In this document: positions 1 through 34,082 of the stretch, one piece after another
Numbering within the stretch: position 1 is the first letter of the stretch
How the letters are laid out: every line of letters begins with the position of its first letter
Virus record (IMG/VR): IMGVR_UViG_3300045988_014597
Coordinates: 1-34,082 of that record
Length of the DNA: 34,082 bases
Source of the DNA: a virus
Lineage: Duplodnaviria > Heunggongvirae > Uroviricota > Caudoviricetes
Direction: 5' to 3' (one strand)
Program-made: the position numbers and the translations under genes
Notes under the pieces: model-generated
What the model saw: the letters and a program-made list of their open reading frames with translations, nothing else
What the model was told of the DNA's origin: nothing
The model's database searches: none

Positions 1-23
1 CCCTATTATATTGGGGTGTGCAA
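1..23 (-). promoter_or_regulatory. Partial family B promoter (TTGCAC-N17-[TACTAT outside window]) pointing leftward out of the window
   Basis: Reverse complement of 1-23 is TTGCACACCCCAATATAATAGGG, nearly identical to the -35 and spacer of the promoter at 21236-21258. The -10 would lie just before position 1. Confidence 0.45.
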
Positions 24-130
24 GTAGTGTGCTAGAATAAGTTTGCGCCTAGTGTCGCACACGAAAAGCGGGTGGTTCCCGTCTGGCGCATTAACCTTAA
101 CCTGTAACCTCTTAACCAAAGGATTAAAGA

Positions 131-9612: not shown

Positions 9613-11033
9613 TTCTTACCTCGTCTCTTCATGTAATTAAGCAATTCTTCCTGTACTGATTTCTTCTCGTCGGTACGCGCGGCAACAACCTCGTCCAGCG
9701 TGTCTTTAGCGACGATGTGATAGAGGAACACCGGGCGCTCGTGGCCTGCCTGTTTCTGGCGTACGGGACCTATACGCTCGACAACCTGCAAATAGTGCTC
9801 AAGGTTCCAGCCTTGCGAGATGAACGCCAGATGATGCCCGCCGTCCTGTAAATTCAAACCATGGCCCGCTGACGCAGGATGTACGCATAGGATTTCGATT
9901 TCTCCACGGTTCCACGCTTCCATCTGCTTATTACCCTTAGCGCCTTTGGCGAATGCCTGGGCCTGCGGGAATCTCTTAAGGATGCGCTCCAGTTCGTGCT
10001 TAAACTGATAAGCCACAAGCAACGGCGCACCCTGTAACTCCTCGACAATGGACTCAAGCGCATCCAGTTTCGTGTCGTGCACTTTCTCCCAGTCTTTCGT
10101 TGCTTCTCCATCAGGCCCCGACACATACACGGCACCAGAAGCAATCTGCAGACACTTCGACGTCTTCGCCGCCGCGTTAGCCGCTTCAACTTCCCCGCTC
10201 TCGAGTTCCGCGAATAGCTTCTCCTCCATATCGATGTACGCCTGACGCGCTTTCTTCGGCAGGTCGATTTCAACCGGTACAATAATCGGCGCTTCACAGC
10301 CGAACCATTCGGCGGCGTCAATCGTGAGACTAATGTCCTTCATCTTCTGATGAATTTCATTATCTGCGCCCGGGCGTGCATGGTATTCACGGGCCATCGC
10401 TGACTTACCTTTCTGTACCGAGTTGAACCAGCGGTCGGTGAATGCTGTGTACGATGAACCAAGTCGCTCGCCTGCGTCGATAAACCAGTTCTGCCCCCAC
10501 AAGTCCTTGAGGCCGTTCGGTGATGGTGTACCTGTCAGGTTAATGAACCGCTTAACCTTACCGAACGCCACTTTACTAAGCGCCTTTGCCCGCTTGCTGC
10601 CGCCTGAACGGCTGCGGAATGATTTCAGCTTCGTGCTTTCATCGGCAACAATAACTGTAAAAGGCCAGTCGTCTTTGCCGTAGTAGTCAATCAGCCACTC
10701 GATAACTTCGTAGTTGGTACAAATCACATTGGCGTCAGACTCCAGCGCCGCGATACGGCGCTTCTCTGAACCTGTCGCATCTACGACATTCAGACACGGG
10801 AATTGCCATTTCTCTTGTTCTGCTGGCCATGTGCCGGACGCAACGCGCAGCGGGGCGAGTATTAACACGCGGTCATCGTCCGTAAGTTGCCCATTGCGAA
10901 ACAGGCGGTTGAGTACCCACATTGTCGACGAGGTCTTGCCGCCGCCCATACCGCACCAGATATTGCAACGTGGGTGCTGTAGTATAAACGACGTCATTAT
11001 TTTCTGGTACTCGCGCCTTTGAAACTTAGACAT
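9609..11033 (-). CDS. SNF2/DEAD-like ATP-dependent helicase, 474 aa
   Basis: Walker A CGMGGGKTS and a DExx box (VIVADEST), plus a C-terminal helicase region. Confidence 0.8.
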   Translation of the reverse strand: MSKFQRREYQKIMTSFILQHPRCNIWCGMGGGKTSSTMWVLNRLFRNGQLTDDDRVLILAPLRVASGTWPAEQEKWQFPCLNVVDATGSEKRRIAALESDANVICTNYEVIEWLIDYYGKDDWPFTVIVADESTKLKSFRSRSGGSKRAKALSKVAFGKVKRFINLTGTPSPNGLKDLWGQNWFIDAGERLGSSYTAFTDRWFNSVQKGKSAMAREYHARPGADNEIHQKMKDISLTIDAAEWFGCEAPIIVPVEIDLPKKARQAYIDMEEKLFAELESGEVEAANAAAKTSKCLQIASGAVYVSGPDGEATKDWEKVHDTKLDALESIVEELQGAPLLVAYQFKHELERILKRFPQAQAFAKGAKGNKQMEAWNRGEIEILCVHPASAGHGLNLQDGGHHLAFISQGWNLEHYLQVVERIGPVRQKQAGHERPVFLYHIVAKDTLDEVVAARTDEKKSVQEELLNYMKRRGKK

Positions 11034-11709: not shown

Positions 11710-11897
11710 TTCAACACCAGAACTAACTCTTTACGTCCAAACGCCGTAACGTTACCGGTTACATCTTCGATAACCAGTTTACCGTTCGACTCGACGTATA
11801 CCGTATCAACGGCAACAGGACGACGTGTCTTAACGTTGAAAATCATGTCACCCGGTACGATGTCACGTGCTGGTTTGCGGTCGTATTCGTGTTTCAT
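11706..11897 (-). CDS. Hypothetical protein, 63 aa
   Basis: ORF directly downstream of a family A promoter, AAGGA-type RBS; stop overlaps the next start. Confidence 0.5.
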   Translation of the reverse strand: MKHEYDRKPARDIVPGDMIFNVKTRRPVAVDTVYVESNGKLVIEDVTGNVTAFGRKELVLVLK

Positions 11898-11908
11898 TTC
11901 TCAATTCC

Positions 11909-12214
11909 TTATATTGTTGGTGTATGACTACTATAATAGTTCGCTATTAGGTCGTCAACCTGTTTAAACGACCCGACGACAAAAACATTTGCGCCACGTT
12001 TGCGCATACGCTCATGTTCCCTCAGCTGGTGAGGGTCTGGCTTCGTATTTTCGTCTTTCTTAACCTCGACGAACCAGACGATGCCTCCGGGGAGAATTAC
12101 CAGGAGGTCAGGGGCCCCCACTCTATTTTCGTACGACAATTTGCGTACGAGGCCACCGAGGGCCTCAAATCGCTCTTTTGCGTATTTCTGGATGCGCCCC
12201 TCAGGCGTACTCAT
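11909..12214 (-). CDS. VRR-NUC domain nuclease (PD-(D/E)xK), about 101 aa
   Basis: GAPDLLVILPGG...FVEVKK pattern. ATG at 12214 preferred over the upstream alternative start used by the ORF track. Confidence 0.65.
   Translation of the reverse strand: MSTPEGRIQKYAKERFEALGGLVRKLSYENRVGAPDLLVILPGGIVWFVEVKKDENTKPDPHQLREHERMRKRGANVFVVGSFKQVDDLIANYYSSHTPTI
11929..11957 (-). promoter_or_regulatory. Family A sigma70-like promoter (TTGACG-N17-TATAGT) with embedded palindrome AATAG-N4-CTATT
   Basis: Reverse strand reads TTGACGACCTAATAGCGAACTATTATAGT; -35 at 11952-11957, -10 at 11929-11934, palindrome at 11934-11947. Confidence 0.6.
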
Positions 12215-15338: not shown

Positions 15339-15368
15339 ACTATAATAGCTTACTATTCAGGTTGTCAA
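15339..15368 (-). promoter_or_regulatory. Family A sigma70-like promoter (TTGACA-N18-TATAGT) with embedded palindrome GAATAG-N4-CTATT
   Basis: Reverse strand reads TTGACAACCTGAATAGTAAGCTATTATAGT; palindrome at 15344-15357. A CCGGG-N5-CCCGG hairpin at 15313-15327 lies in the 5' leader. Confidence 0.6.
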
Positions 15369-17593: not shown

Positions 17594-17623
17594 ACTATAA
17601 TAGCAAACTATTCATGTTGTCAA
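17594..17623 (-). promoter_or_regulatory. Family A sigma70-like promoter (TTGACA-N18-TATAGT) with embedded palindrome (T)GAATAG-N4-CTATT
   Basis: Reverse strand reads TTGACAACATGAATAGTTTGCTATTATAGT; palindrome at 17599-17612. Divergent from the HTH gene promoter. Confidence 0.6.
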
Positions 17624-17627
17624 TGGG

Positions 17628-17657
17628 CTTTTCTAAAATAATTAATATGGTACTATT
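17628..17657 (+). promoter_or_regulatory. Putative promoter of the XRE gene, with a degenerate palindrome AATAT-N4-CTATT over the -10 (TACTAT)
   Basis: TACTATTCAC at 17651-17660 matches the family B -10 and leader; the -35 is weak (CTTTTC). Confidence 0.35.
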
Positions 17658-17687
17658 CACATATCGGCTAACTAAGGAGTAATTGAC

Positions 17688-17903
17688 ATGCAACCATCTG
17701 AACTAGGCATCCGTGTAGAACAACGCCGCAAAGAACTCGGCATCTCCCAGCGCCGTCTGGCCGTCCTGGCTGGCGTTTCCCAGGGCGCAATTAACCAGCT
17801 GGCACTTGGGGTAACTCAGGACGTCCGCCCGGCGACGCTGTTCAAACTGGCGGAAGTGCTGCAAGTAGACGCCAAGTGGCTGGCGTTAGGTGAAGGGGCT
17901 TAA
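17688..17903 (+). CDS. XRE-family helix-turn-helix transcriptional regulator (Cro/CI-like), 71 aa
   Basis: LGISQRRLAVLAGVSQGAINQLALG helix-turn-helix; AAGGAG RBS; sole + strand gene inside the reverse-strand replication module. Confidence 0.85.
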   Translation: MQPSELGIRVEQRRKELGISQRRLAVLAGVSQGAINQLALGVTQDVRPATLFKLAEVLQVDAKWLALGEGA

Positions 17904-20245: not shown

Positions 20246-20695
20246 TTATTCAGCGTTTGGTACTGCAAGAGCATACACGCCATCCAGCACCTTAATCAAC
20301 AAACCTTTTTTACAAAGCCCGCGCATGGCGGTACAGACATCACCAAGATTAGTGACATCATCTTTTACCATGGCGTATACCGCACTAGGCGTAAAACGTT
20401 GTCCTTGCTGTTCAAGACATTTTCCATAGACTAATTTTTGTAACTCCGTAAGTTGGCCCTTCTCGGGAAAAGGAACGGATATAACATTGGATGGTTTCCC
20501 ACCTTTAACCCAATACAGGTACTTACTCCCATCATAAACACGGTCTATCTCCCCGAAATACCCAAGCAATGAAATCGCGGCGCTAATTGGCCCGTCGAGT
20601 TCTATTGCAGATTTAATGTCATGCAGTGACGCTCCCGGGTTCTCGGCTAATATCATATTTAACGATTTAAGAAACTCGTCTAAGTATTTATGCAT
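20246..20695 (-). CDS. Hypothetical protein, 149 aa, possibly winged-helix DNA-binding
   Basis: Second gene of the reverse-strand operon; C-terminal region resembles a winged helix. Weak assignment. Confidence 0.55.
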   Translation of the reverse strand: MHKYLDEFLKSLNMILAENPGASLHDIKSAIELDGPISAAISLLGYFGEIDRVYDGSKYLYWVKGGKPSNVISVPFPEKGQLTELQKLVYGKCLEQQGQRFTPSAVYAMVKDDVTNLGDVCTAMRGLCKKGLLIKVLDGVYALAVPNAE

Positions 20696-20831
20696 TCTTC
20701 TTAGCCTCTCTTAATTGTTTGCGATATGCATTGAAACATTCACGGCAATAACTGCGTGTGCCTTTTCTGTCATATCGTTTGAGGAATGCACCTTCTTCTT
20801 TTTCTTTCCTACACATCTGGCAAATCTTCAT
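20688..20831 (-). CDS. Small zinc-ribbon protein, 47 aa
   Basis: MKICQMCRKEKEEGAFLKRYDRKGTRSYCRECFNAYRKQLREAKKNA with two CxxC pairs; strong GAGGAG RBS; stop overlaps the downstream ATG. Confidence 0.45.
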   Translation of the reverse strand: MKICQMCRKEKEEGAFLKRYDRKGTRSYCRECFNAYRKQLREAKKNA

Positions 20832-20849
20832 CTAAATACTCCTCGGCGG

Positions 20850-20878
20850 TTGAAGTACCCAATATAATGGTACTTCAA
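20850..20878. promoter_or_regulatory. Perfect 10 bp inverted repeat flanking a TATAAT-containing core (candidate operator and bidirectional promoter core)
   Basis: TTGAAGTACC-CAATATAAT-GGTACTTCAA. Confidence 0.5.
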
Positions 20879-20889
20879 GCAAAAAGCAA
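20861..20889 (-). promoter_or_regulatory. Candidate sigma70 promoter (TTGCTT-N17-TATATT) for the reverse-strand replication operon
   Basis: Reverse strand: -35 from 20884-20889, -10 from 20861-20866. Confidence 0.4.
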
Positions 20890-20926
20890 CAACAAAGTTA
20901 CTAAGATACAAAAGATGCTACTGATA

Positions 20927-20955
20927 TTGACTTTTCACTGAAAATATGCTAAGCT
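20927..20955 (+). promoter_or_regulatory. Strong sigma70-like promoter with extended -10 (TTGACT-N17-TGC-TAAGCT), copy 1
   Basis: TTGACT at 20927-20932, TG at 20947-20948, TAAGCT at 20950-20955. Confidence 0.6.
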
Positions 20956-21037
20956 CCACCTGAGCTTGTGAAGTATGAACAAGCGACCGCGGTGCGGCAG
21001 GAGAACGGAGCGGTGCGTTAGCACTGAGTGTAGTGTC
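20927..21037 (+). repeat. Dispersed direct repeat R1 (promoter plus conserved leader), about 110 bp
   Basis: Aligns with 33971-34082. The first ~66 nt differ at 2 positions; the remainder has two single-base indels and more substitutions. Confidence 0.85.
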
Positions 21038-21155
21038 GCTGCCCGCATTCGGAAGGCCCATAGTCTATTGTTAATCCAGCCTAAATACCCAAGTCACTGA
21101 TAATTAAAAGTTTCTATAGTTGCCGTGAGCAATGTAGAGAGTACTTCACTCCGCT

Positions 21156-21177
21156 GGGGTGGGCTAACGCCCACCCC
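21156..21177 (+). other. GC-rich hairpin GGGGTGGGC-TAAC-GCCCACCCC
   Basis: Perfect 9 bp stem with a 4 nt loop. No immediate U-tract, so either a weak terminator or an RNA structural element downstream of R1. Confidence 0.4.
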
Positions 21178-21235
21178 CTGCGTTGCGTACTCTTTTAAGA
21201 AACGAAAGAATCACAACGGCAACGTAACTATTCTC

Positions 21236-21264
21236 TTGCACACCCCAACATAATAGGATACTAT
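21236..21264 (+). promoter_or_regulatory. Family B sigma70-like promoter (TTGCAC-N17-TACTAT) with embedded palindrome AATAG-N4-CTATT
   Basis: Palindrome at 21252-21265; the promoter, leader and start share about 63 of 66 positions with the reverse-strand copy near 33841-33904. Confidence 0.6.
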
Positions 21265-21298
21265 TCACTTATCGAAACGAGACATAAGGAATTTAGAA

Positions 21299-21517
21299 AT
21301 GAACAAAGCGACCGCAAGCGTAGTTTCCGCAATCAAAGAAGTTTACGGCATCGATATTTCAGAGCGCGTAATCATCGGTAATAAGCGCAACTTCTTTACG
21401 TTCGACACCGACGGAATGGATGAAAATGATTTTATCAACGTACAACGTTTCGCTAATGATAGAGGGCTTCGTAACGAGCCTGCAGGTTACAAGAAATTCG
21501 CTATCTACTTTAAATAA
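21299..21517 (+). CDS. Hypothetical protein, 72 aa
   Basis: First ORF after the family B promoter; AAGGA RBS. Confidence 0.6.
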   Translation: MNKATASVVSAIKEVYGIDISERVIIGNKRNFFTFDTDGMDENDFINVQRFANDRGLRNEPAGYKKFAIYFK

Positions 21518-22000: not shown

Positions 22001-22195
22001 ATGAGCCCGTATAACAAATTTCGCTTACGCCGTCTTGTTGGTGGTCTGCGCGCCGCCGAGTTTGGTGTTGAATGTTGGGAAAAGGCGAAATATACCCCAT
22101 GGAAGTCGTGGCATTTGGTTCATGCTAAGGCGGTAGCACAGTACCGTGAGTACAAGTTAAACAGTTTCCTTAAGCACCACGGGGTTGAGTTATGA
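22001..22195 (+). CDS. Hypothetical protein, 64 aa
   Basis: GGAGG RBS five nt upstream of ATG 22001. Confidence 0.45.
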   Translation: MSPYNKFRLRRLVGGLRAAEFGVECWEKAKYTPWKSWHLVHAKAVAQYREYKLNSFLKHHGVEL

Positions 22196-22353
22196 GAGAA
22201 GCATTTGAACGGTGGGCCGTCGTAGAGGGTCTGCCGGTTAACAAGGGTTCGAAGAAAGAGTACCTGACCGTTAAGACACGTCTTGCGTGGCGGGCGTGGA
22301 AAGCTGGTGTGCAATTTCGTGCTGGTGTAACAGGTGGTGTAACAGGTCAATAG
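22192..22353 (+). CDS. Small hypothetical protein, 53 aa
   Basis: ATGA overlap with the upstream stop; too short for the ORF track. Confidence 0.35.
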   Translation: MREAFERWAVVEGLPVNKGSKKEYLTVKTRLAWRAWKAGVQFRAGVTGGVTGQ

Positions 22354-22501
22354 GTTACTATTTGTCTTTGTGTCTTACGCTGCTACACAGCAGCGTACAA
22401 CTTTAACTTAGTGTCGTCAAAAGGCGACACTTTTCACCAAACGCAACAATCGAAGCGACTATTGCAGGAGATGCAACAATACAAACACCAATAAAATTTA
22501 C

Positions 22502-22530
22502 TTGCACACTGGGATAGAATAGACTACTAT
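22502..22530 (+). promoter_or_regulatory. Family B sigma70-like promoter (TTGCAC-N17-TACTAT) with embedded palindrome GAATAG-N4-CTATTC
   Basis: Palindrome at 22517-22532 overlaps the -10. Confidence 0.6.
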
Positions 22531-22561
22531 TCATTTACACGAACGAGAGGATAGACAGAAG

Positions 22562-22711
22562 ATGGTTACTTTGATGATTATGGAATTCGAAAACAGCGCT
22601 GCAACTTACCGCGAGATGACTATGGCGCAGGCGTACCATCTGGCATCAAACGGCAGCTTCTACAAGGCTCAAATCATCAATGAGTTCGGGGTAATTGACT
22701 ATGAATTTTAG
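22562..22711 (+). CDS. Small hypothetical protein, 49 aa
   Basis: First ATG after the promoter and leader; overlaps the next gene start. Confidence 0.4.
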   Translation: MVTLMIMEFENSAATYREMTMAQAYHLASNGSFYKAQIINEFGVIDYEF

Positions 22712-30684: not shown

Positions 30685-30706
30685 AAAGGCCCCATTATGG
30701 GGCTTT
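30685..30706. terminator. Bidirectional intrinsic terminator between the portal gene and the convergent methyltransferase gene
   Basis: AAAGGCCCC-ATTAT-GGGGCTTT; the methyltransferase stop codon lies in the loop. Confidence 0.65.
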
Positions 30707-31447
30707 AGCTTTATATGCTTCAGATATGCGTCTTCTGGCTATACGGAAGTAGTCGCGGTCTAGTTCCATACCTATAAACTTCCGGTTTGTGTTCGCACAC
30801 GCAACTCCGGTTGTCCCGCTACCCATACAGTTATCAAGAACTGTATCCCCTTCGTTTGTGTATGTTTTAATCAGGTATTCCATGAGTGCTACTGGCTTTT
30901 GTGTCGGGTGTACTGTGCCACCCTCATTATCAAAACGTAAAACAGAATCTGGGTATCCCGTTTGCGTCTGACGATACGTATCTTTGTGAGAAGGCCGGGT
31001 GTTAACGAAGGCCCTGTCTTTCCTAATATTGGTAAGGGTTACGTCACACTGCCTGACCCCTTGCGGGTTGTATGCCATACGGCGTTCACTTTTATTCGCT
31101 GTGGTCCCTTTGCTGAAAACCGCGATTTCCTCATGCCCTCTTAATGGCTTATTTTTAGCATTAAATACATCACCTTTTCTGCTCTTCACCCATATCCAGC
31201 AGTATTTAAACATATCCATATTTGACGCTATAAGGGCTGTGGTGAACGGCTGCGCACAGGTTAAAACTATAGCACCACGGCCCGTTATTATTCGGGAATA
31301 ATGAAACCATAGTTGGTCAAATGGAAGCACACTATCCCACTTACATGAAGTGGTGCCATAAGGTAAATCGCACAGTATAAGGTCGATACTTTTGTCCGGT
31401 ATGCCGGCCATCAACTCCAAACAATCCCCACGTTTCAAAGTAAACAC
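30695..31447 (-). CDS. DNA methyltransferase, N6-adenine / N4-cytosine family, 250 aa, GTG start
   Basis: Catalytic tetrapeptide region LILCDLPYG (a DPPY variant) N-terminal to the SAM motif VLDNCMGSGTTGVA; GGAGG RBS; own family B-type promoter. Confidence 0.8.
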   Translation of the reverse strand: MFTLKRGDCLELMAGIPDKSIDLILCDLPYGTTSCKWDSVLPFDQLWFHYSRIITGRGAIVLTCAQPFTTALIASNMDMFKYCWIWVKSRKGDVFNAKNKPLRGHEEIAVFSKGTTANKSERRMAYNPQGVRQCDVTLTNIRKDRAFVNTRPSHKDTYRQTQTGYPDSVLRFDNEGGTVHPTQKPVALMEYLIKTYTNEGDTVLDNCMGSGTTGVACANTNRKFIGMELDRDYFRIARRRISEAYKAKAP

Positions 31448-31475
31448 TTTAACACCTCCTGTTTAAGTTAGCAGA

Positions 31476-31504
31476 ATAGTACCCTATTATATTGGTGTCT
31501 GCAA
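31476..31504 (-). promoter_or_regulatory. Family B-type promoter (TTGCAG-N17-TACTAT) with embedded palindrome GAATAG-N4-CTATT, driving the methyltransferase
   Basis: Reverse strand reads TTGCAGACACCAATATAATAGGGTACTAT; palindrome at 31474-31488. Confidence 0.6.
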
Positions 31505-31548
31505 ATATTATTTTTATGCGTTACACTGTCGATACTACAGGAGGGCCT

Positions 31549-33054: not shown

Positions 33055-33077
33055 AAAAGGCCCCATTACGGGGCCTT
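33055..33077. terminator. Bidirectional intrinsic terminator
   Basis: AAAGGCCCC-ATTAC-GGGGCCTT, nearly identical to the hairpin at 30685-30706; the stop of the convergent reverse-strand gene lies in the loop. Confidence 0.65.
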
Positions 33078-33374
33078 AACTTTCCATACTTCCCTTAGCG
33101 CTACGAGTTTATGATTACCGATATCCCTTGATATTATTGAATCTGTAAAACCATTGAACCATGATTTCATCCAGTCAGACGTTCTGAAATCTGAGTATAG
33201 AATATGTATTGTTTGCGGGGCGTCTACATCGTAATGCTGGCACACATAAACACAACCGCTGGCGAATATAACAGCTTTAAACGTATCGTAGTCTTCTGAA
33301 TCCGGGAACTCGCTAGAGTCCCCGACAAGATATCTGTACGCGTATTTTTTAGTAGTCTTCTTTCTTTTCCGCAT
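33066..33374 (-). CDS. Hypothetical protein, 102 aa
   Basis: ORF in an AT-richer reverse-strand block; basic N-terminus. Confidence 0.5.
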   Translation of the reverse strand: MRKRKKTTKKYAYRYLVGDSSEFPDSEDYDTFKAVIFASGCVYVCQHYDVDAPQTIHILYSDFRTSDWMKSWFNGFTDSIISRDIGNHKLVALREVWKVKAP

Positions 33375-33383
33375 GGCGATTTC

Positions 33384-33623
33384 TCAGAAGTGTATTACTG
33401 GTTGTTTAAACTTCCAGTCACAATCTACCTGTTTAATAACGCCTTTCGCAACAAGGCTGTCTATGAACTCCTGACCTGAATTCGTCTTGTACCATGTATA
33501 TCTGTTCCCGACTTTTACGCCGGGTAGGCTATGGTACACAACACCGTCAACCACCATAAAAGAGACGCCGATAGTACCTTTTTCTGCATAGAGTTTTTTA
33601 CCCGCACTGCTCATGTAGCACAT
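33384..33623 (-). CDS. Hypothetical protein, 79 aa
   Basis: ORF in the same block. Confidence 0.5.
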   Translation of the reverse strand: MCYMSSAGKKLYAEKGTIGVSFMVVDGVVYHSLPGVKVGNRYTWYKTNSGQEFIDSLVAKGVIKQVDCDWKFKQPVIHF

Positions 33624-33655
33624 CTCCCACGTAGATAGTTAGTAAGGTAAGGCCC

Positions 33656-33841
33656 TTAGGCCTTACGAATTGTATACCCATACCCAAGGTAGCCGTTTTT
33701 CTCTTGCATAGCGGAGGCGCGAAGCAGAGCAGCATTCTCACCTTTAACTACGGCGACCACATAATCGGTAGCGTCCGGACCGTTTTCTACAACTTCATAC
33801 GCCTGTACGTTCTTGGTGGTAAGTTCATATGTGTTAGTCAT
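33656..33841 (-). CDS. Hypothetical protein, 61 aa
   Basis: Driven by a family B promoter and leader that matches the + strand cassette at 21236-21301. Confidence 0.55.
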   Translation of the reverse strand: MTNTYELTTKNVQAYEVVENGPDATDYVVAVVKGENAALLRASAMQEKNGYLGYGYTIRKA

Positions 33842-33875
33842 TTCTAAATTCCTTATCTCTCGTTTCGATAAGTGA

Positions 33876-33904
33876 ATAGTACCCTATTATGTTGGTGTGT
33901 GCAA
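33876..33904 (-). promoter_or_regulatory. Family B promoter (TTGCAC-N17-TACTAT) with embedded palindrome GAATAG-N4-CTATT
   Basis: Reverse strand reads TTGCACACACCAACATAATAGGGTACTAT; palindrome at 33874-33888. Confidence 0.6.
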
Positions 33905-33970
33905 ACTATTTATTTACCTATTCCAATTATCCCACTAAATTGTAAATGTTGGAATAAACTATTCGAATAG

Positions 33971-33999
33971 TTGACTTTTCACTAAAAATGTGCTAAGCT
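33971..33999 (+). promoter_or_regulatory. Strong sigma70-like promoter with extended -10 (TTGACT-N17-TGC-TAAGCT), copy 2
   Basis: Same architecture as 20927-20955; preceded by the perfect palindrome CTATTCGAATAG at 33959-33970. Confidence 0.6.
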
Positions 34000-34082
34000 C
34001 CACCTGAGCTTGTGAAGTATGAACAAGCGACCGCGGCGCGGGCAGGTAACGGAGCGGGACGTAAGTCCTGAGTGTAGTTACG
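33971..34082 (+). repeat. Dispersed direct repeat R2 (promoter plus conserved leader), truncated by the window end
   Basis: Aligns with 20927-21037. Confidence 0.85.

Follow-up and report, generated by a model that had tools for sequence, protein, structure and literature searches.

The closest described counterpart of the element treated here is the promoter-early stem-loop (PeSL) of T4-type phages: an early promoter that recurs in the genome, has an inverted repeat located between the -35 and -10 hexamers or overlapping them, and ends in a Shine-Dalgarno (SD) sequence and a start codon (PMC2839356; PMC4122927). PeSLs precede variable ORFans, and a role in the shuffling of modules was proposed for them (Arbiol et al. 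2010, PMC2839356; Comeau et al. 2014, PMC4122927). We analysed a stretch of 34,082 nt from a tailed phage (IMG/VR record IMGVR_UViG_3300045988_014597, Caudoviricetes), which as a whole is called the window in the following. It contains a 67-nt repeat, one arm at 21236-21302 (+), the other at 33838-33904 (-). In our judgement, the two arms are probably copies of a conserved promoter cassette, termed class I, which heads early transcription units and whose cargo genes are swapped by recombination. The cassette would thus work like a PeSL while standing outside the PeSL family; the pattern of promoter-cassette gene swapping has already been described for T4-like phages.

The likeness concerns several features. 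The repeated sigma-70-like early promoter is represented here by the predicted promoter TTGCAC-17-TACTAT (agreement with the consensus about 8/12), which occupies intergenic positions at five loci and heads co-oriented genes there. In both systems, an SD sequence and a downstream start codon form the 3' end of the motif; close relatives differ by indels or replacements that are bounded by the motif and affect variable genes of no known function; and the motif is proposed to provide homology for a shuffling that carries its own expression signals. The differences are equally clear. Here, the inverted repeat consists of A/T-rich half-sites of 5 bp around a 4-nt centre and resembles an operator, whereas the PeSL forms a stable G/C stem-loop acting as a terminator; in the present case, terminators are located at the far end of each gene island. 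There are five copies per genome at fixed loci on both strands instead of about 50 in hyperplastic regions, and the carrier is a 44-kb siphovirus and not a T4-like myovirus. Excision of mini-circles, as in the case of PeSLs, is not expected, because the copies lie on both strands, essential genes are situated between them, and no pair of direct copies encloses the cargo.

A repeat finder reported the arms at 21236-21302 (+) and 33838-33904 (-) as an inverted repeat of 67 nt with 96% complementarity. When the strands are aligned, 64 of the 67 bases are identical, which corresponds to 63 of 66 up to the ATG; the value of about 63/66, given in the original prediction for the segment ending in the ATG at 21299 and the reverse strand at 33839-33904, is thus reproduced by direct comparison. 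The similarity starts at the hexamer TTGCAC and stops one base past the ATG; on neither side are the flanking sequences related. With a 29-nt probe and a tolerance of 3 mismatches, only these 2 sites, A and B, were detected in the window, whereas 0.00 were expected from 100 shuffles. An accidental or generic resemblance of hexamers can therefore be dismissed, and so can an assembly artefact that duplicated a short segment: a match of 64/67 with sharp edges stands against zero expected, and dozens of genomes, each sequenced independently, have the same copies at these loci. A further, leftward copy had been proposed at the very beginning of the window; indeed, bases 2-24 match 21235-21257 in inverted orientation (96%) and constitute a third copy, which is cut by the window start.

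A 72-aa open reading frame (ORF; 21299-21517, +) at the head of an early operon begins with the ATG at 21299, and the ATG at 33841 opens a 61-aa ORF (33656-33841, -). BLASTP gave no alignment of the two products with E <= 100, in agreement with the claim that the downstream coding sequences are unrelated. Diverged paralogues behind a conserved upstream region were ruled out, as the downstream proteins lack similarity. The 72-aa product matches phrog_7673, whose label "internal head protein" is probably an annotation error in this case, because the gene heads the early operon.

According to megablast, the window is a genome fragment of a Kagunavirus (Guernseyvirinae); the closest record is vB_EcoS-K1_SXAU_B4 (SXAU_B4 in the following) with about 90% identity across 74% of the query. 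The Kagunavirus relatives are virulent Escherichia coli siphoviruses with genomes of about 44 kb, and mosaicism is pronounced in this group. The gene map was taken from the annotated relatives Bas70, SHAK7858, phiWAO78-1, and K1G. It consists of a leftward replication block (9.4-20.7 kb of the window), small rightward early genes, which begin at 21.3 kb and run on into lysis, terminase, and portal genes, and a remaining rightward structural cluster, which is broken up by short leftward islands. The record of SHAK7858 (OR594183.1) is filed as Autographiviridae/Kayfunavirus yet is collinear with Kagunavirus, which is probably an annotation error in the public record.

The class I cassette consists of TTGCAC, a 17-bp spacer, and TACTAT, followed some 30 nt further on by an SD sequence and a start codon. 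A mismatch-tolerant scan of the window and the complete relatives identified four or five copies per genome, each having a locus-specific upstream flank. The number of three loci in the original prediction was too low: there are five class I loci plus three promoters of a second class, in which the palindrome described below recurs. Cassette A (locus A, 21236..21302, +) comprises the -35 hexamer TTGCAC (21236-21241), the 17-bp spacer, the -10 hexamer TACTAT (21259-21264), the palindrome AATAGGATACTATT (21252-21265), a leader, and the SD sequence AAGGA (21286-21290) 8 nt before the ATG at 21299; the identity between the copies extends through this ATG. It forms the head of a long rightward operon of small early genes. 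Cassette B (locus B, 33838..33904, -), with its -35 hexamer at 33904-33899, its palindrome at 33875-33888, and its ATG at 33841-33839, possesses the same leader as A and heads a leftward three-gene island between the head-decoration gene and the spanin leader. Cassette C (locus C, 1..26, -) is truncated by the window start; its flank "agcacactac" matches locus C of the relatives, which lies between the tail tube and tail chaperone genes. It points to the left and diverges from the tail assembly chaperone gene (131-547). Cassette D (locus D, 31445..31507, -) is located between the portal and head-morphogenesis genes and heads the gene of an N6/N4 DNA methyltransferase; it has a -35 hexamer TTGCAG (31504-31499), the palindrome at 31475-31488, a GTG start at 31447, and a different leader (GCTAACTTAAACAGGAGG...). 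The fifth cassette, E2 (22502..22564, +), is a second early-region promoter with its -35 hexamer at 22502-22507, the palindrome at 22518-22531, and a leader reaching to the ATG at 22562. In addition, a degenerate class I copy is found at about 17625-17687 (+).

An alignment of 62 copies from 16 genomes revealed the invariant pattern TTGC..AC....A.A.AATAG..TACTATTCA; the information content drops after the TCA. A BLAST search with the 72-nt cassette found 415 places in 234 phage records, all of which are of the Guernseyvirinae type; the hosts of these phages are Escherichia, Salmonella, Raoultella, Serratia, Klebsiella, and Shigella. In most relatives, only the first 54 of the 72 nt match at 100%, and the sequences diverge beyond. 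In 596 Gb of prokaryotic genomes, the core motif gave 23 scattered single matches, which corresponds to the chance level, and none of them was in enterobacteria. For this reason, mimicry of a host promoter and a prophage origin were ruled out.

The -10 hexamer of class I is overlapped by the 14-bp palindrome AATAG-N4-CTATT, which occurs in eight exact copies in the window versus 0.01 expected: four belong to class I promoters, three to class II promoters, and one stands alone at 22349. Class II promoters consist of TTGACA, an 18-bp spacer, and TATAGT, match the sigma-70 consensus at 11/12 positions, and head the leftward replication operons; their palindromes are at 11935, 15344, and 17599. 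The promoter at 17594..17623 (-), whose 18-bp spacer contains the palindrome AATAGTTTGCTATT, diverges from the gene of a Cro-like protein. The promoter at 15339..15368 (-) carries the same palindrome and heads the operon of single-stranded DNA-binding protein and DNA polymerase, and the one at 11930..11958 (-) reads TTGACG ... AATAGCGAACTATT ... TATAGT. The gene start at 11897 behind the latter uses the SD module ATAAGGAATTGAGAAATG, as in the cassette leader. Across the genomes and both promoter classes, the palindrome is present in 6-9 promoters per genome and its half-sites are invariant, while the central 4 bp vary freely (GGGT, GGAT, GACT, CGAA, TTAG, TTCG, CAGA, CTAG, CGGG). Moreover, its offset from the -35 hexamer differs between class I and class II. 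The fixed half-sites, the variable centre, and the differing offsets point to the site of a dimeric DNA-binding protein and not to polymerase contacts. The stand-alone palindrome AATAGGTTACTATT (22349-22362, +) lacks a -35 hexamer; it directly follows a tandem of two GGTGTAACAGGT units at the end of ORF 22192-22353 (region 22325-22362) and is kept in SXAU_B4 and in none of the other genomes checked.

A candidate for the protein binding this site is encoded at 17688..17903 (+). The 71-aa product is 434-Cro-like and belongs to the family HTH_3 (PF01381 at 1.2e-12); its best solved homologue is phage 434 Cro, likewise 71 aa long (E 1.8e-6). The gene is present in 15 of 15 complete genomes with an amino acid identity of 96-99%. 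Its own promoter region (about 17625-17687) contains AATATGGTACTATT at 17644-17657 together with a TGn extended -10 element, and the divergent promoter region at this gene holds two palindrome sites, which are 45 bp apart. 434 Cro binds 14-bp operators, whose outer bases are conserved and whose centre is variable. Analogously, the 71-aa HTH_3 protein would have a putative 14-bp target that overlaps promoters, among them the divergent pair at the regulator gene. In contrast to the situation in phage 434, the sequence of the half-sites is another one, the sites are distributed genome-wide over 6-9 promoters instead of being clustered in an immunity region, and no CI-type partner repressor was identified. 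Based on these similarities, we infer that the palindrome is the operator of the 71-aa Cro-like protein, which would act as an off-switch for the promoters of both classes. In the closest relative, RNA-seq places a gene with a helix-turn-helix (HTH) domain among the four early genes (PMC12645636).

The same motif has been noticed before under a different label. For phage fBC-Eco01, seven "phage promoters" with the consensus tgAATAGTa-ccTATTat-T were found by means of PHIRE (PMC9825357), and this consensus is the motif of the palindrome described here. Genome papers based on PHIRE imply that the motif marks promoters recognized by an RNA polymerase or sigma factor of the phage itself, and the imperfect match of class I to the sigma-70 consensus would suit such a reading. 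We consider it most improbable: neither an RNA polymerase gene nor a sigma factor gene is found in the annotations of the four relatives, and a palindrome at differing offsets from ordinary -35/-10 pairs fits an operator better. As no phage polymerase gene is annotated, we rejected the label "phage RNA polymerase promoters".

The operator-like properties of the palindrome lead to a more serious alternative, namely that the cassettes represent a regulon and nothing else. In this case, purifying selection would act on the promoter, operator, and ribosome binding site of co-regulated early genes, illegitimate insertions would have brought the cargos, and recombination would play no role. Invariant half-sites, a variable centre, and the occurrence of the palindrome in a second promoter class are signs of functional constraint, and conservation of the core is probably also functional due to the operator: such a constraint would account for the near-invariant spacer and -10 region. 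An explanation by regulation as the only force is nevertheless unlikely in our view, since it does not accommodate the leaders and the distribution of the cargos, which are considered next.

One promoter core is combined with a few leader types, and each type is common to unrelated cargos. The leader of the window, U1 (AAACGAGASATAAGGAATTTAGAAATG), goes with the cargo families MNKATA, MTNTYE, and MAKYSN, and its SD module also serves a class II-driven gene (11881-11912). The leader GTTAACTTAAACAGGAG... precedes about eight cargos, the spacer between SD and ATG being cargo-specific, and the E2 leader is found in front of 15 different first genes. The leaders are patchworks of 8-10-nt blocks. 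Folding of the four predicted leaders gave no structure (z-scores between -0.2 and +1.3), and the interpretation as riboswitch or attenuator was dropped for this reason. Leader sharing, the cargo-specific spacers, the patchwork composition, and the lack of structure indicate that the cargo joints lie between SD and ATG or at the ATG itself. A shared leader could also be the translational operator of a phage repressor or a small RNA, comparable to T4 RegA acting on early mRNAs. This would be in line with the occurrence of U1 in front of at least three unrelated cargos, with its SD module behind a class II promoter, and with the 15 first genes that have the E2 leader in common. However, several leader types follow one core, the spacer between SD and ATG varies by cargo in the commonest type, the leaders are unstructured and match no Rfam family, and neither a candidate RNA-binding regulator nor a complementary RNA was found; we rate this possibility as quite improbable. 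An unstructured leader also offers no obvious regulatory reason for an identity that reaches up to the ATG, which argues against the regulon as the only explanation.

In order to determine the range of cargos, 87 further IMG/VR loci with the exact core and nine more complete genomes were added; each promoter copy was assigned to a locus by means of a longer flank, and the first downstream proteins were clustered. The 159 promoter copies were followed by 36 first-gene clusters: 2-3 at locus A, 3-4 at C, 8 at D, 11 at B, and 15 at E2. The notion of a portable expression cassette in front of different genes, which the original prediction had derived from one genome, is borne out by this diversity. 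Six clusters (MITTVI, MTHKFK, MTNTYE, MAKYSN, the methyltransferase, and MFKEKD) are common to B and D. MNKATA, the locus A gene, has a copy at locus B in CR01; its occurrence at locus D in BCH953P1 is less secure, due to an assignment by a short flank. The N6/N4 DNA methyltransferase resides at locus D in the window and at locus B in another contig. That the same cargo is found together with its leader at different loci in different genomes, and that six cargo families are shared by B and D, is difficult to reconcile with a mere regulon.

The two islands of the window allow one to track such a relocation. Island B (33055..33915, -; 861 bp) consists of a bidirectional terminator hairpin (33057-33077), three small genes (33066-33374, 33384-33623, 33656-33841, all -), and cassette B. 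As a whole, it shares 90% identity with the locus D island of SXAU_B4 and 87% with that of phiWAO78-1, and the homology to the locus B flank of SXAU_B4, phiWAO78-1, and other genomes resumes at 33855-33873, i.e. inside the promoter. Island B is an exchangeable unit. Island D (30685..31516, -), situated between the portal and head-morphogenesis genes, comprises a terminator hairpin (30686-30706), the methyltransferase gene (30695-31447), and cassette D. The terminator ends of the islands D (30685-30721) and B (33056-33092) are 84% identical over 37 nt; this match takes in the final codons (...K-A-P-stop) of two genes that are unrelated in the rest of their sequence; as a result, the stop codon lies within the hairpin loop. 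A single 29-nt segment of SXAU_B4 (9704-9732) aligns with both 30685-30712 and 33055-33083 of the window. The homology to the donor island and that to the local flank thus overlap inside promoter and terminator, which again is not predicted by a regulon alone. In K1G, both sites B and D are empty and contain only the terminator hairpin, and the decoration gene adjoins the spanin leader; in K1G, Bas70, and SHAK7858, the portal and head-morphogenesis genes are adjacent. The GC content of the islands is 0.439 and 0.451; the window as a whole has 0.505, and the structural genes have 0.515. At the island end opposite the promoter, 0.25-0.9 kb away, G/C-rich terminator hairpins with a T-tract are predicted.

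Variants of the -35 region (TTGCACAC, TTGCAGAC, TTGCGCAC; CC or AC; ACC) are common to B and D and not shared by A and C. This distribution points to an exchange between loci B and D and is a further observation that a regulon without recombination does not account for. In the cassette B of the window, no unique joint could be assigned when a single crossover point was sought from single-nucleotide polymorphisms, because shuffling between B and D in the population has affected the -35 variants as well. The fusion of MTNTYE to the leader is also present in three other genomes; consequently, it predates this phage.

A comparison of related genomes for breakpoints at the cassettes had been suggested as a check. 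The window was compared by BLAST to 15 complete genomes, which gave 532 alignment ends, and the cassettes were taken with 20 nt on either side. At the four usable class I cassettes 23 ends were counted versus 6.6 expected, which is an excess of about 3.5-fold (permutation p = 0.04 versus random positions). Other promoter regions are equally enriched, as a regulon without a recombination role would have it. As a consequence of this modest enrichment, we refrain from calling the cassettes a recombination hot spot. Exchange mediated by the cassettes is supported by the relocation of islands and by the overlap of homology in promoter and terminator, and not by the density of breakpoints. Of the proposal that modular recombination takes place at promoters, island relocation and cargo exchange can be upheld; conservation of the cassettes is, however, probably also regulatory, and breakpoint enrichment remains modest.

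Several points weigh against our explanation. The class II promoter regions hold 18 and 15 alignment ends and are as rich as, or richer than, the class I cassettes; the latter are mosaic joints and not demonstrably hotter than other regulatory intergenic regions of a mosaic family. A and B are inverted relative to each other, and a direct recombination between them would invert 12.5 kb and not move a gene; their near-identity thus does not stem from a simple reciprocal exchange within one genome. Homologous exchange accounts for the spread of cargo-leader fusions and not for the first joining of a new cargo at or near the ATG. With regard to transcription, class I matches the sigma-70 consensus at only about 8/12 positions and was not flagged by a simple promoter scan, and the promoter may need a phage factor. 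Finally, the RNA-seq of the closest relative is too coarse to resolve transcription start sites (PMC12645636).

Taken together, cargo swapping by recombination remains the probable explanation, and the following mechanism is conceivable. The anatomy of the cassettes, the distribution of their copies, the variety of cargos, and the relocation of an island are direct observations on the sequences, whereas promoter activity, binding of the Cro-like protein, and the mode of recombination are inferred. Each cassette combines a predicted sigma-70-type promoter, a palindrome over the -10 hexamer, a leader of about 30 nt that lacks structure and carries a strong SD sequence, and a start codon. The five transcription units are the main rightward early operon (A, E2) and three leftward accessory islands (B, D, C) within the late structural cluster. 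Class I promoters would be fired early by the host RNA polymerase; the 71-aa Cro-like protein would then bind the palindrome and shut off class I as well as the three class II replication promoters. In all islands, the 40-70 bp of promoter and leader are the same, and a similar terminator hairpin closes the opposite end; because of these shared ends, homologous recombination between co-infecting relatives or paralogous loci could swap the cargo while expression is kept correct. A Gp2.5-like annealing protein and an exonuclease, both annotated in the relatives, could carry out this exchange.

A bolder version, which we put forward as a tentative possibility, is that promoter-operator-leader and bidirectional terminator are dedicated homology arms ("sockets"), by which the annealase and exonuclease of the phage would exchange early accessory genes across the entire population of Guernseyvirinae. 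The cargos would be methyltransferase, superinfection-exclusion, and other probable anti-defence genes; the result would be an integron-like pool of gene cassettes that makes use of homologous instead of site-specific recombination, and the identity of the leaders would be kept, at least in part, for recombination and not for expression. If correct, our interpretation provides a regulatory map (early class, middle class, operator, and Cro-like regulator) for a subfamily widely used in phage therapy and biocontrol. The five fixed and naturally permissive slots with ready expression signals would be payload engineering sites in Kagunavirus and Jerseyvirus and would show where to seek new anti-defence genes. 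Moreover, the PeSL idea of promoter-mediated modular shuffling would be extended from T4-like myoviruses to small siphoviruses.

Two further systems are related to the cassettes in certain respects. The moron concept of Juhala and Hendrix describes extra genes in lambdoid and HK97-like phages. Like morons, the islands B and D are present or absent between conserved neighbours, have their own predicted promoter and terminator, and are of lower GC content. In contrast, the promoters of the different islands are copies of the early promoter of the phage itself and hardly differ from it, and the terminator ends resemble each other; expression from a prophage is irrelevant here, because the phage is virulent. 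The start-associated sequences (SAS) and extended start-associated sequences (ESAS) of Cluster K mycobacteriophages are 13-bp, translation-associated motifs without a promoter. In both cases, a short conserved sequence is placed, within a single group of phages, directly before the start codon of numerous genes that are unrelated to each other, whereas here the whole ensemble of promoter, operator, and leader is shared.

Cassettes A and B are adjoined by a second repeat, D1: a 108-nt direct repeat at 20927-21034 and 33971-34078 with 88% identity. The entire D1 element (20927-21190, +; second copy 33971-34082, +, cut by the window end) consists of a promoter (TTGACT-17-TAAGCT), a conserved structured RNA of about 115 nt, and an intrinsic terminator (21155-21185), which lies 60-90 nt beyond the structured RNA. 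The RNA forms a long irregular helix with a covarying apical hairpin. In 17 diverse sequences, 97.9% of the cells pair, compared to 31-43% with the partners slid; four pairs show compensatory changes (for example, column 38/97 is CG in 9, UA in 5, and AU in 3 sequences), and the apical hairpin exists with five different stem sequences. A small ORF is annotated over D1, and its ATG is lost in one variant. The RNA matches no Rfam family, and D1 is apparently an undescribed structured leader RNA. The copy ahead of the spanin-capsid-tail operon is present in 15 of 15 complete relatives and, as a truncated copy, at the window end, while ahead of promoter A, D1 occurs in the window and in 4 of the 15 relatives; in the others, its place is taken by three alternative promoter-leader-terminator modules. 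A promoter, a structured RNA, and a terminator in this order at the start of late units suggest, as a lead only, a cis-acting antitermination leader, which would let late transcription cross the opposing islands. The PR'-6S arrangement of lambda offers one comparison for such a function; the put RNA of HK022 (PMC9378689) offers another.

The region of about 440 nt upstream of promoter A, equivalent to 20800-21235 of the window, is polymorphic, and four alternative modules occur among 16 genomes. Each module combines a strong promoter with a leader rich in hairpins and with a terminator; two module types share AACG(R)GC-hairpin-(G)AGTGTWG, and some of the leaders have a variable (CTCA)n tract. 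Within the D1 RNA, ATGAACAAGCGACCGC (20975-20990) resembles ATGAACAAAGCGACCGC at the gene start of cassette A (21299-21315) in 16/17 positions with one indel; both are on the same strand, 324 nt apart, and the match may be a relic of recombination between the regulatory elements of D1 and cassette A. A search of the window for tRNA and tmRNA genes gave no hit, and Rfam yielded nothing meaningful for the whole window at gathering thresholds and for 20900-21320 at E <= 10. Two overlapping genes at 20246-20831 (-) have no tblastn match (E <= 1e-5) in the 15 complete relatives. The first encodes a 149-aa protein without a family match, the second a 47-aa, zinc-ribbon-like protein with four cysteines and weak PHROG matches to endonuclease VII, HNH, and Lar-like proteins; in the relatives, an Xis-like HTH gene occupies the place of this gene pair.

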